DNA of 52,452 nt, taken from Escherichia phage EcoM1. The notes beneath the pieces are model-generated. The model was not told the DNA's origin, did no database searches, and saw only the letters and a list, made by a program, of their open reading frames with translations. Location of the stretch: sequence record PQ818760.1; one strand, given 5' to 3'. The translations under genes were made by a program, and so were the position numbers. Within the stretch, counting starts at the first letter, position 1. Every line of letters starts with the position of its first letter. This document shows positions 33,245 to 48,770 of this stretch, one piece after another.

Positions 33245-33454
33245 TCACTGTCGGGTAAGTTTCGAACACTTTTGTGCCCACGTTTCATTGTGGACTAAAA
33301 TCTGTGTTTTGGTTTCGCGTGACAGTATTTTCACTTCTGCAACATCCAAATATATTGGTTGTGCAATTAAGCAATAATCACTTACGAACCCACTTTGAGA
33401 GCAACTCACTATCGACATTGCTATCAGAACTGCTAGACACTTCTTTCTGAACAT
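33245..33454 (-). CDS. o-spanin (Rz1-like outer-membrane lipoprotein)
   Basis: 69 aa with lipoprotein signal ending SIVSC (lipobox-like), two further Cys; starts inside the i-spanin gene in another frame and extends beyond it. Confidence 0.5.
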   Translation of the reverse strand: MFRKKCLAVLIAMSIVSCSQSGFVSDYCLIAQPIYLDVAEVKILSRETKTQILVHNETWAQKCSKLTRQ

Positions 33455-33614
33455 GCGATTTAATCTCGATAGATTCTTTTAATGAATCTAGTTGCTTCTC
33501 TTTGGCTTCCTGACGCTCCTCGGCTTTGCCTGAGCTTTTGCCTTTGAGGAACACTGCAATAAGAATACCAAATGCAGTCAGGACGCCAAGAACTATTGAT
33601 TTAAGCTGTTGCAT
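33378..33614 (-). CDS. i-spanin (Rz-like)
   Basis: 78 aa: N-terminal transmembrane helix (IVLGVLTAFGILIAVFL) followed by a charged coiled-coil-like region; overlapped by the o-spanin frame. Confidence 0.55.
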   Translation of the reverse strand: MQQLKSIVLGVLTAFGILIAVFLKGKSSGKAEERQEAKEKQLDSLKESIEIKSHVQKEVSSSSDSNVDSELLSKWVRK

Positions 33615-33763: not shown

Positions 33764-33789
33764 GAGGACTCCATGTTATTGTTGAAGTG

Positions 33790-33884
33790 GGTGGACGAGG
33801 TTGGATTCGAACCAACGACACATCTGTCGAACAGATTGCTCTACCTGACTAAGCTCTGGAGCAGACCTTCTGAGCTACTCGTCC
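33790..33884 (-). tRNA. tRNA-like gene, possibly tRNA-Leu(CAG), non-canonical D-arm
   Basis: Perfect 7-bp acceptor stem (GGACGAG/CTCGTCC), canonical T-arm GTTGG-TTCGAAT-CCAAC, discriminator A then CC; candidate anticodon loop GT-CAG-GT with a long variable hairpin. I could not fold a standard D-stem by hand. Confidence 0.45.
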
Positions 33885-34782
33885 GAATAAGGTGGGGTTT
33901 TGGTAACGCAGGTTTTCCCGAACTGCGAGGCTTGTAGAATCCGTGAGTCGCCTACTGTGTTTTGACATAACGTGGGATTGATGGTCCCGACTCACTTCAT
34001 CTCAGGTACGAGGCACTACTTTGCGAGTGCAAGCAGGTGTTGAACCCAAGTACCAACAGGCAACCTGATTTAATCTACCTTTGTAGATACCATCGGTTAT
34101 GAGCAGTTTATTTCCATGCTCAGGGCAACTCACTTTAGGGTGAATTAGGTTACGCAGTGCAGCTTCGAAGTCGCTGCCACAGGCTTGAGATTCCTGTGTG
34201 GAGGGAAATCCAGAGGAGCACTTCCCCAAGGAGTTACGTTTCAAATTGGCATAGCTTCTCACACTAAACCAATTGAAGACATTCCAGTGTGCTCGTCCGT
34301 CCTCTAGAAATATCCAACTGCATAATTAAGTTTGTACTCTGTCACATCCCCACGCGCACTGGAGGACTTAAGCCTGCTTTGCATCGCAGAATACAAATTA
34401 ATTATTGCTCCGATTTATTAATCACATCTCGAAGCCACAATGCGCCAAATTTGGTTACGTGGGATTGGAAGACCACGGAGAGGACTTAAATTTAATTAAG
34501 CCGCAACTCGCATTTCAGAATCATTTGCATTTATTTTAAATGAATAAAACAGTCGCAATAACTTCGGGCAGTTTAGGCCCGTCGTAAGACTCAGAAAACT
34601 ACTTCAATGAACACTCTTGTCTGGGCCACGAGATTGGGCATCGGCCTACCTCCCAACTCTAATCACAAGAATGCTCATTGAAGCCCACTCTTCCTTTCAG
34701 AATGGGTTCAAGGCAGCACCGGAAAACTTCCAGTGCATGCCAGATCGATTTAGCTTAGTCTCTCAAGTTTGCCATCGGCAAC

Positions 34783-35200: not shown

Positions 35201-35221
35201 CACATCCAACTAATGTTTCAG
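35201..35221 (-). promoter_or_regulatory. phage promoter-like element
   Basis: + strand cacatccaactaatgtttcag; gene-strand reading ctgaaACATTAGTTGGATGTG; 80 nt upstream of the ATG at 35121. Confidence 0.4.
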
Positions 35222-35245: not shown

Positions 35246-35920
35246 TCAATATCTATTGAATCGTTCTAGTGTTTTATTTACTAAATCCTTTGTCTCAGCG
35301 ACAGTGAGTTCAGTGATGATTGATTCGTCATAACCCTCAATCTGGATTGCTACAAAACGCCCAACTCCAGTTACAGTGAGTCGGTTTGTTCTGTCACGAA
35401 CAACTACACCAGCTTCTTGCGCGACTGCTCGCAACAATTTCCAGCGTAAAGTTCGATTTGGCACAGCAAAGCCTTTTGCCAAGAACAACTCTTTCATGAG
35501 TTCTCCAAGACAAACAGCTTCAATGTTTTGTCCTCTTCCAACTAATTCTTGCAACAGGCACAGTGTCAACATTTCTAAATTGTTGAAGTGTCCAGCGCGC
35601 TCCAAATTAAAGAACTCTGGAGGAACAGTTGAACGAGATTTAACAGCTTGCTTGTATGCACGTTCTTCTTCCTGTGCAGCAAGCATTAGCATCTCTGGCT
35701 TGATGTACTTCATAGCAGAGAAGCCAGCGCGTGTGGCTTTAATTATGCGACAAGCCTCTTTCATCTTGTAGCGTTGCCACTCACCGCGCTTCGATTCTGG
35801 ATTAAAATGGACCCACATAATGATAACATCTTCCTTGGCAAGATAGACGGCATCATTATCATTGAGCCATTGCTTACACGTTGATAGTGCAATCTCTTTG
35901 TCATCATCATGATAAGACAT
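35246..35920 (-). CDS. hypothetical early protein
   Basis: Start taken at ATG (MSYHDDD...) just past the upstream stop; track ORF extends to 35977. Confidence 0.35.
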   Translation of the reverse strand: MSYHDDDKEIALSTCKQWLNDNDAVYLAKEDVIIMWVHFNPESKRGEWQRYKMKEACRIIKATRAGFSAMKYIKPEMLMLAAQEEERAYKQAVKSRSTVPPEFFNLERAGHFNNLEMLTLCLLQELVGRGQNIEAVCLGELMKELFLAKGFAVPNRTLRWKLLRAVAQEAGVVVRDRTNRLTVTGVGRFVAIQIEGYDESIITELTVAETKDLVNKTLERFNRY

Positions 35921-36699: not shown

Positions 36700-37422
36700 A
36701 GGAACTCTCCAATTTTCGATTCAATGTTTGTGACTTCTCTTCTCATCTTTTGGCCCAGGAACAGGCCACAGGGTAGCGCAGGAAGGCCGAAAATCGGGCC
36801 ACTGCCTACCGTTTGTGTCAATTCTGGATAACTGCATTGGTGAAGGGTTACTCCCGTTAGGGTGCGATACGCTAATCACATGAGTGTCGTCGCCTTGCGG
36901 CTCAGGCGTGTCACAGAGGCTTTGCAACCCTTCCCAATACATTCACCCAATCCACCTGCTTTGGCATAGCTGGTGGCGCGGTTTTGTGCGGATTATGCCA
37001 CTCTAAGCCCTGTTTGTCCGACTTCCTCAGAGCACCAGCGGCTTGTGGCACAAACCTATTTTCGAATGACTAACATAAGCATGAGGCATAACCCTCTAAT
37101 TATTCAGCCCTAACAGCTTGCTTATTTAGTTCCAATTCATCCCAATACATCGCCTATAACAAGTGAATAGCTTTTCTGCGAAGAAGTATTCCGGCCCTTT
37201 GGCCTATGTTAAAAGATAAATGTATATGATGGAAACATTCCATCGAAAATAACTTTGTAGAATGAGTCGAACATTCTCGCACGATGCGGCCGCAACGGTC
37301 TACCGAGTTACAAAGTTATTATCTGATGTTGTTTCTTCAATTCCAACTAATGTTTCAGAATTATTCCAATATTCCAAACAAAAAGAATAATAAGAATAAA
37401 TTAAAATAAATGAAGAAAGTGC

Positions 37423-41539: not shown

Positions 41540-41557
41540 CACATCCAACTAATGTTA
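41540..41557 (-). promoter_or_regulatory. phage promoter-like element
   Basis: + strand cacatccaactaatgtta, 74 nt upstream of the ATG at 41466. Confidence 0.4.
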
Positions 41558-45531: not shown

Positions 45532-45548
45532 CACATGCAACTAATGAT
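45532..45548 (-). promoter_or_regulatory. phage promoter-like element (GCATGTG variant)
   Basis: + strand cacatgcaactaatgat; same as the recurrent element with c-to-g at one position. Confidence 0.3.
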
Positions 45549-46446: not shown

Positions 46447-46464
46447 CACATCCAACTAATGTCG
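46447..46464 (-). promoter_or_regulatory. phage promoter-like element
   Basis: + strand cacatccaactaatgtcg; coordinates anchored on the plus ORF starting at 46411. Confidence 0.35.
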
Positions 46465-46708: not shown

Positions 46709-46725
46709 CACATGCAACTAATGCC
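46709..46725 (-). promoter_or_regulatory. phage promoter-like element (GCATGTG variant)
   Basis: + strand cacatgcaactaatgcc, immediately after the polymerase stop and 29 nt upstream of the 55-aa ORF. Confidence 0.3.
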
Positions 46726-48752: not shown

Positions 48753-48770
48753 CACTTCCAACTAATATCA
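48753..48770 (-). promoter_or_regulatory. phage promoter-like element upstream of the polymerase gene
   Basis: + strand cacttccaactaatatca, 69 nt upstream of the polymerase ATG; a TATAAT hexamer lies between it and the gene. Confidence 0.35.

Follow-up and report, generated by a model that had tools for sequence, protein, structure and literature searches.

A tRNA-derived element with a D-loop insertion and a shortened anticodon arm in phiEcoM-GJ1-like phages

The locus and its annotation

The 52,452-nucleotide sequence of Escherichia phage EcoM1 (PQ818760.1), referred to here as the window, carries on its minus strand a 93-nt element that begins with G1 at 33884 and ends with a discriminator A at 33792, element position n being window coordinate 33885-n. 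Our comparisons show this element to be homologous to tRNA, with the body of a class I tRNA-Arg(UCG)-like molecule. The window belongs to a phiEcoM-GJ1-like phage (Chaseviridae, Carltongylesvirus), and most of 47 phage records match a 900-bp region of it at 92-98% identity. The element was found in 39 records, and about 27 related phages were compared. Upstream of it lies an imm-like gene, and downstream a 46-codon open reading frame (ORF), whose ribosome-binding site is about 24 nt past the discriminator, followed by Rz-like spanin genes and thymidylate synthase.

Although GenBank already contains the gene, its anatomy, of which we found no description in the literature, and the pattern of its variation are new. 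Public records conflict over it, giving a 95-nt tRNA-Arg with a possible intron, a 71-nt tRNA-Arg with a wrong 5' end, a tRNA-Leu, a protein ORF or nothing. A tRNA-Arg is annotated in GJ1, ST32, Ecp_YSF, Pel53 and Tiny. The GJ1 record (NC_010106, 14456-14550) has a 95-nt "tRNA-Arg, may contain an intron", the ST32 paper describes 95 bp "without an intron" (PMC6266442), and the 71-nt tRNAscan-SE calls in Ecp_YSF and Pel53 start inside the insertion described below and have, by our count, only four of the seven acceptor pairs. The Yersinia phage paper gives "arginine or leucine" and reports that PYps3T, 4T and 16T "lack exactly the tRNA gene" (PMC8762354), while the Mangalitsa authors, using ARAGORN, reported "0 tRNAs" (PMC6753284). 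The anatomy of the element accounts for this disagreement among gene finders and fixes its boundaries.

Anatomy of the element

As RNA the element reads GGACGAG UA GCUC AG[AAGGUCUGCUCCAGAGCUUAG]UCAGGUA GAGC A AUCUG UUCGA CAGAU GUGUC GUUGG UUCGAAU CCAAC CUCGUCC A CCC, with the insertion in brackets; all of the parts named here are on the minus strand. An original prediction, made from the letters of the window, had described a 93-nt minus-strand element with a perfect 7-bp acceptor stem, a textbook T-arm and a discriminator A, and each of these is present. The 5' strand of the acceptor stem, GGACGAG (positions 1-7; 33878-33884), is invariant in 13 haplotypes, and its partner, CTCGTCC (33793-33799), has one variable site (C/T) at which the pair stays G-C or G-U. 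The T-arm, GTTGG-TTCGAAT-CCAAC (33800-33816), has T54, Psi55, C56 and A58, its sole variation being T/C at loop position 60. The discriminator A and the CC after it (33790-33792) are followed by a further C, and CCA is not encoded in the window; among relatives the discriminator is A or G and the third base past it is A or C, and one locus (L100) is without the CC. The linker of U8 and A9 (33876-33877), which the models align to tRNA positions 8-9, is invariant. The same prediction had found no standard D-stem. This part of it does not hold, as GCTC (positions 10-13; 33872-33875; invariant) pairs perfectly with GAGC (positions 44-47; 33838-33841), a pairing that is used in full-length Infernal alignments and is kept in 13 of 13 haplotypes.

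What sets the element apart from an ordinary class I tRNA lies in the D-loop and in the anticodon arm. The D-loop, normally of about 7-11 nt, is 30 nt long in the window; in the GJ1 allele and in SA91KD it has 29 nt and 24 nt, respectively. It comprises a 21-nt insertion, AAGGTCTGCTCCAGAGCTTAG (positions 16-36; 33849-33869), and a distal part, TCAGGTA (33842-33848), which provides GG and A21. Of this distal part GGTA is invariant, and TCA, together with the last three bases of the insert, is deleted in SA91KD. The anticodon arm, ATCTG-TTCGA-CAGAT (33822-33836), has 15 nt instead of 17, and carries at 33828-33830 a hypervariable triloop, or nominal anticodon, TCG. It is followed by an invariant GTGTC (33817-33821), which takes the place of the class I variable loop (tRNA numbering 44-48, with G46 and C48) in the tRNA model. 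All of the nucleotides that make tertiary contacts in a tRNA are present.

Standard searches missed this molecule. ARAGORN reported no tRNA gene anywhere in the window, and Rfam at gathering thresholds found nothing in it; when the whole window was scanned with Rfam at E values up to 1, only tRNA and one chance miRNA match were returned, and no Y RNA family. The original prediction had named silence from tRNA predictors as a sign against a tRNA, and ARAGORN was indeed silent on the element; as disproof, however, this does not serve, since the tRNA fold is found by an unfiltered covariance model. The misses of ARAGORN and of Rfam at its gathering score are explained by the insert and by search heuristics, and not by the want of a tRNA fold. 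On the window copy the Rfam tRNA model gave a local alignment of 27.9 bits (E=2e-4 on the interval; gathering score 29). In its register GCUUAGUCAGGUAGAGC is the D-arm, AUCUG-UUCGA-CAGAU is the anticodon arm minus two loop positions, and GUGUC is the class I variable loop; likewise, in DNA letters, GCTTAGTCAGGTAGAGC aligns to the D-arm of the model and ATCTG-TTCGA-CAGAT to its anticodon arm, with the 5-nt variable loop GTGTC coming next. When Infernal was given less sequence, copies from relatives aligned over their full length and above the gathering score (SA91KD 45.6, GJ1 41.8 and PYps16N 41.5 bits). The PYps16N copy is 3 nt from that of the window, although the window haplotype itself gave only the local match, and the gap between its 27.9 bits and the 41-46 bits of the relatives is a product of search heuristics. 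These full-length alignments pair the first GCUC to the distal GAGC and handle 18-24 nt as a D-loop insertion.

Unrelated class I tRNAs from the fetched loci, 74 in all, were used to build an independent covariance model, R1, which was searched with all filters off. It aligned the window copy at 33792-33881 with 37.1 bits (E~1e-9) over model positions 1-76 and all four helices, with a 23-nt D-loop insertion and, as with the Rfam model, a 2-nt deletion in the anticodon loop. The acceptor register of this alignment is shifted, an artefact that arises because R1 expects an encoded CCA where the window has CCC. Together with the local Rfam match and the conservation in about 27 related phages, this places the element far outside what chance would give. 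All helices are 100% paired across the 13 haplotypes. When the insert was deleted in silico, at either placement, ARAGORN at default stringency called a 74-nt tRNA-Arg(tcg), and the minimum-energy fold became a cloverleaf. A tRNA with an insertion, which was one of the options of the original prediction, is thus borne out both by this deletion and by the D-loop insertion seen in the models. Unrelated canonical phage tRNAs that share the 3' half of the D-arm and the T-arm read acceptor-TA-TAGCTCAG-(1-3 nt)-GGTAGAGCA, where TAGCTCAG is GCTCAG, followed by a 17-nt anticodon arm, and the element minus its insert matches this layout; L053 reads TAGCTCAGTCAGGTAGAGCA, the exact sequence that remains after the deletion.

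The insert has two alleles, of 21 nt in the window and 20 nt in GJ1, and is variable at 9 of 21 positions; the two alleles differ at 7 positions, one compensatory pair included. Its place is between the first GCUC-AGAAGGU and the more distal GGUA-GAGC; owing to the repeated GCTCAG/GCTTAG, its exact ends could shift by a few nucleotides. The similarity between copy 1 and copy 2 was beaten by 40 of 5000 shuffles for the GJ1 allele and by 394 of 5000 for the window allele. As copy 1 is more like the true D-arm than most shuffles are, the insert probably began as a tandem duplication and would now be a degenerated duplicate of the 5' part of the D-arm. It contains a candidate mini-hairpin (positions 23-32; 33853-33862) that is predicted to add -2.4 kcal/mol to the cloverleaf. 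Its alleles are GCU-CCAG-AGC in the window and GCA-UUG-UGC in GJ1, in which the G-C and C-G pairs are invariant, the loop varies, and the third pair changes from U-A to A-U, the one compensatory change. Both possible D-stem models are 100% compatible with every sequence. Positions 10-20 (GCTCAGAAGGT; in RNA form GCUCAGAAGGU) are invariant, whereas in the second GCU(U/C) there is variation and, in SA91KD, a partial deletion, which favours a D-stem that joins the distal GAGC to the first GCUC and leaves the insert as a loop. Two parts of the insert, AAGGT and TGC, are also invariant. Covariation was rejected as a proof of structure, given the one double-sided change and the fit of both D-stem models, and contrasts in conservation were used instead.

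Variation, distribution and context

The alignment comprises 27 copies representing 13 haplotypes. A conserved stretch extends from G1 through position 72, and the 5' leader and 3' trailer on either side of it are nearly saturated with changes. In the stems 1 of 42 positions is variable (G-C to G-U, so that pairing is kept) and in the whole core 5 of 66, compared with 23 of the 46 third codon positions in the adjacent 46-codon ORF (Fisher p=4e-7 for the core against third positions); 16 of 24 columns are variable in the 5' leader. It is clear from these contrasts that every helix and every tertiary-contact nucleotide is under strong purifying selection. All four gametes are seen at several pairs of polymorphic sites, which indicates that the polymorphism is old and recombining and bears no trace of a recent sweep.

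The anticodon arm behaves differently from the rest of the core. It is 15 nt long in 29 of 29 copies, where a canonical arm has 17 nt in a 5-bp stem and a 7-nt loop, and ViennaRNA predicts that it closes to 6 bp with a 3-nt loop, the first and last loop bases being pairable in every case (U-A in 12 haplotypes, U-G in one). Among the 27 phages the loop is UUCGA in 21 copies, UAAGA in three, UUAGG in two and UCGAA in one, giving the four triloop alleles UCG, AAG, UAG and CGA. Four of the five loop positions are variable, which differs from the core (p=6e-4) and is indistinguishable from third codon positions (p=0.35); the nominal anticodon therefore varies near-neutrally. In the TH29 allele the common hairpin is replaced by its exact reverse complement, a single inversion event that turns the nominal anticodon from UCG into CGA and is tolerated by the phage. 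Three independent changes all fall in the loop and none in the stems, and the RNA body stays conserved in the same phages. Random knock-outs of a dispensable tRNA should hit the stems at least as often as the loop. Complementarity between the loop and the T-loop, and co-variation of the loop with its flanks, were considered by inspection of the alignment and rejected, as no consistent partner was found across the alleles.

The element is absent from PYps3T, PYps4T and PYps16T and from a relative at 78% protein identity, which has no tRNA at the locus. Comparison of the empty site of PYps3T (L080), CCCAC-ATC-CTTAAC, with the occupied site of PYps23T (L064), CCCAC-CAAATTTT-[tRNA]-CC-CTTAAC, shows that what came or went was the tRNA body together with some 8 nt of leader. 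In some phages, although not in GJ1, this unit is flanked by a short CCACC-like repeat, and horizontal transfer has been suggested as the cause of gain or loss (PMC8762354). No counterpart of the element was matched in 5,426 E. coli genomes, and scans of viral, metagenome and genome collections for a canonical ancestor, using acceptor and D-arm patterns, recovered only unrelated tRNAs, mostly Lys, along with two more GJ1-like copies, both in metagenomes. One record that carries the element, L003 (PP952070.1, "Staphylococcus phage Pel53", host S. hyicus), is 92-94% identical in this region to the Escherichia and Yersinia Carltongylesvirus phages compared here, and its assignment to a Staphylococcus host looks doubtful.

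In several records hypothetical-protein coding sequences (CDSs) are drawn across or into the element, namely in FXie (L062, 274-453; WWE96984.1), Mangalitsa (L072, 216-335; Mangalitsa_035) and Ecp_YSF (L002, 832-927; WMM91873.1). We considered a protein-coding ORF over the element, either in the form of these CDSs or as the window frames 33773-33937 (plus strand) and 33849-33995 (minus strand), and rejected it on account of the 1-nt and 6-nt indel alleles and of variation that follows RNA structure and not codon phase. Directly upstream of the element is a 46-nt non-coding box, ATTCTACAAGCCTCGCAGTTCGGGAAAACCTGCGTTACCAAAACCC (33895-33940, minus strand), with 2 variable columns in 27 phages. This box is as conserved as the tRNA core and is kept in PYps3T, which is without the element. 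As a repeated phage promoter it was considered and rejected: the window has a single copy, no stable fold is predicted for it, and it is still there where the tRNA is deleted.

A motif of the GJ1 type, ATTAGTTGGA[AT]G, which the GJ1 record labels "putative phage promoter", has eight copies with 0-1 mismatch on the minus strand between 35203 and 48766 (35203-35214, 35535-35546, 37340-37351, 41542-41553, 45534-45545, 46449-46460, 46711-46722 and 48755-48766), all on the coding strand of the early region. With up to 2 mismatches there are 19 matches, compared with 9.5 expected. According to the ICTV profile, promoters of the Chaseviridae are not yet identified. No copy of the motif lies between 35203 and the element, the nearest being 1.3 kb upstream, and neither a sigma-70 promoter nor a terminator of its own was found beside the element on the minus strand. 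It is therefore probable that the element lies within a polycistronic transcript, from which it would need to be excised, and excision would also set the ends of the neighbouring mRNAs. No tRNA ligase, kinase, nucleotidyltransferase, repair or modification enzyme is annotated in this phage type (Mangalitsa annotation). Farther downstream, two overlapping small ORFs on the minus strand (33378-33614 and 33245-33454) match Rz-like spanin PHROG families (E=3e-20 and 1e-17), and counterparts of these are labelled "endolysin" or "L-alanyl-D-glutamate peptidase" in several related records.

Possible functions and comparison with known systems

Considered on its anatomy alone, the element is very probably a tRNA-derived RNA that is under selection for its structure and has acquired a D-loop insertion and a shortened anticodon arm. 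With more reserve, we lean towards a fuller reading in which this anatomy belongs to a non-decoding, tRNA-shaped RNA that is processed by host enzymes; a tRNA-shaped RNA is more likely here than a working decoder, and among the options of the original prediction the "tRNA-like processing element" is now the leading functional reading. The element would be transcribed within a polycistronic message and fold into an L-shape, after which host RNase P and 3' processing enzymes would excise a species of about 93-95 nt with the insert retained. Such an RNA may act through its tRNA shape and not through decoding. Set between the imm-like gene and the small-ORF and spanin genes, it might serve as a "punctuation mark" for processing or, alternatively, as a mimic or decoy for a factor that binds tRNA. 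A broader proposal, which we put forward only tentatively, is that Carltongylesvirus phages keep a dedicated non-decoding, L-shaped tRNA mimic that has a further hairpin in its D-loop and a capped anticodon stem, the tip of which varies freely or is subject to diversifying selection. This mimic might draw off, as a decoy or sponge, some host factor that binds or targets tRNA, or be an RNase P-dependent switch of the neighbouring genes, and the additional gene of TH23, TH28 and TH33 discussed below would be a second example.

Several observations weigh against this fuller reading. UCG, and with it C35 and G36, is kept in 21 of 27 copies, which have A or G at position 73, and CGA makes up 15% of the Arg codons here (7.1 per 1000), so that a tRNA reading CGA would be useful; the phage uses this codon at about twice the frequency of E. 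coli. An open conformer of the anticodon arm may also form, with a 4-bp stem and a 7-nt loop (G32-U33-UCG-A37-C38), as ARAGORN draws it. Moreover, the element is dispensable, the covariation support for its structure is weak, coming from a single event, and neither expression, processing nor aminoacylation of this RNA is reported in the literature that we found.

The retained UCG and the share of CGA codons make a working, if odd, tRNA-Arg(UCG) a possibility to be taken seriously, although we think it doubtful. The insert would then bulge out harmlessly, the arm would open to the 4-bp stem and 7-nt loop, host arginyl-tRNA synthetase (ArgRS) would charge the molecule, and it would help to decode CGA, a codon that is poorly read in E. 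coli; the deletions, like the AAG, UAG and CGA alleles, would be losses of function in a dispensable gene. Annotations based on tRNAscan-SE say Arg, as does ARAGORN once the insert is removed, and the presence of every tertiary-contact nucleotide is as expected of such a tRNA, as is clean loss in some phages, which is frequent among accessory tRNA genes (PMC8762354). E. coli ArgRS, however, has A20 as its main determinant and needs C35 as well (PMC9976931). The window keeps the Arg determinants of the UCG (C35 and G36) and of A73, but A20 is missing, there being a U after G18 G19 in both D-loop copies (AAGGU and CAGGUA), and the insert sits in the very region that should bear it. In addition, C35 is lost in the AAG, UAG and CGA alleles, that is in 6 of 27 phages, the arm is 2 nt short and predicted closed in every copy, and the three independent events touch only the loop in phages whose RNA body is still under selection. 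It is less probable still that the element is a dead pseudogene, disabled in the clade's ancestor when its D-arm was duplicated and 2 nt were lost from the loop, and low in diversity through recent horizontal spread. The two structural defects, the failure of standard finders, the absence from some close relatives and one more distant, and the horizontal gain or loss suggested for the Yersinia phages (PMC8762354) would all be in keeping with this. A sweep would nevertheless flatten all sites alike, and the variation is uneven (1 of 42 stem positions, 4 of 5 in the loop, 23 of 46 at codon position 3); the sole stem change retains pairing, and the four gametes at several site pairs mark the polymorphism as old. 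The GCTCAG/GCTCAG direct repeats that flank the GJ1 insert would permit its precise loss, yet none of 29 copies has lost it.

The two remaining explanations concern the insert and the register of the fold. Splicing of a 20-21-nt insert would yield a canonical tRNA of 72-74 nt, and the note in the GJ1 record and the textbook cloverleaf restored by removing the insert both speak for an intron. Bacterial and phage tRNA introns, however, are self-splicing group I introns of hundreds of nucleotides in the anticodon loop, for which 21 nt is far too short, and the bulge-helix-bulge endonuclease that removes short introns elsewhere is, to our knowledge, archaeal and eukaryal and absent from E. coli. 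Annotations of this phage type include no candidate RNA ligase or endonuclease, the invariance of AAGGT and TGC would not be expected of a discarded spacer, and the ST32 authors state that there is no intron (PMC6266442), all of which makes an intron highly improbable. The class II tRNA-Leu(CAG) of the original prediction, with a long variable arm and a degenerate D-arm, has the least in its favour. The two internal hairpins which that prediction described do exist, but the covariance models place the "CAG hairpin" at the D-arm and align the supposed class II variable hairpin to the anticodon arm, and the five unpaired GTGTC bases after it are a normal class I variable loop. The misreading is understandable since ARAGORN itself calls Leu(cag), at 95-97 nt, on GJ1, ST32, SKA49, DE15 and Bp10. 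The A73 of the window is a Leu determinant. The calls are nevertheless unstable: the GJ1-type insert gives Leu(cag), SA91KD gives Ser(gct) and the window type gives none. The ARAGORN drawing has an A-A mismatch in the "anticodon stem" and no D-stem. The natural 6-nt deletion of SA91KD, the copy with the highest Rfam tRNA score, destroys the CAG and keeps the rest. On the model alignments, this deletion and the instability of the calls, we ruled out the tRNA-Leu, to which we would allow next to no likelihood.

If the non-decoding RNA is indeed made and excised, the element would be a compact case of a phage keeping a tRNA shape under selection while its anticodon drifts, and of the tRNA fold being used outside decoding, for example as processing punctuation or in mimicry. 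Should it turn out instead to be a conventional tRNA-Arg that reads CGA, it would demonstrate tolerance of 21 inserted nt in the D-loop and of an anticodon arm of 15 nt. The question is timely because anti-phage defences that target tRNA, and phage tRNA countermeasures, are now being described, and existing natural phages, some with the element and some lacking it, and with four loop alleles, make the readings easy to test.

The nearest known relatives of the element are the "tRNA-Arg" of phiEcoM-GJ1 and the copies in ST32, Ecp_YSF, Pel53, PYps16N/23T and Tiny, which are the same gene at the same locus with the same body, in a region of 88-98% DNA identity. In comparison with GJ1 the window has a 21-nt instead of a 20-nt insert, discriminator A instead of G and a 3' CCC where GJ1 encodes CCA, and ARAGORN calls the GJ1 copy (as Leu) but not that of the window. 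With canonical class I tRNA (RF00005) the element shares the 7-bp acceptor stem, 4-bp D-stem, 5-bp T-stem and 5-nt variable loop, as well as U8, A14, G15, G18 G19, A21, G46, C48, T54-Psi55-C56 and G53-C61, and with tRNA-Arg(UCG) the nominal UCG between U33 and A37 and the full-length model alignments. It departs from canonical tRNA in its additional 21 nt of D-loop, its 15-nt anticodon arm, its lack of A20 and in having the anticodon as its most variable part.

Among non-decoding RNAs a possible analogy is with mascRNA of MALAT1, a eukaryotic tRNA-like RNA that is excised by tRNA-processing enzymes. Both would combine good acceptor and T arms with a reduced, poorly conserved anticodon arm inside a longer transcript, although there is no sequence relationship, mascRNA is without the extra D-loop insert, and processing of the phage element is a proposal. 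In YrlA (Y RNA-like) RNAs the tRNA-like domain is joined to a Ro-binding stem made by the 5' and 3' ends, and we know of no Ro orthologue in E. coli. The ends of the phage element, unlike those of YrlA, form an ordinary acceptor stem, and it has no Rfam Y RNA match at E values up to 1. YrlA RNAs are nonetheless tRNA mimics that occur in bacteria and some phages, as non-coding RNAs with a tRNA-like D/T elbow domain (PMC4201824). Abnormal anticodon loops were seen in 5 of 584 (0.9%) ARAGORN calls from unrelated fetched loci, so that odd phage tRNA-like genes are rare but not unheard of. A second tRNA-like gene of about 70 nt is present in TH23 (L079, 427-496), 12 nt downstream of the element; TH28 and TH33 have the identical gene, and it was found in no other phage record. 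It was not detected by the Rfam tRNA model at E values up to 1, and ARAGORN reports it as "tRNA-??? (ac)". Its sequence is unrelated to that of the element, it has no D-loop insert, and it is confined to these three near-identical genomes. The two genes are nevertheless alike in occupying the same locus, in having a cloverleaf with a 7-bp acceptor stem, D-arm and T-arm, and in having an abnormal closed anticodon arm, which in TH23 can form 6 bp and a GACG tetraloop.

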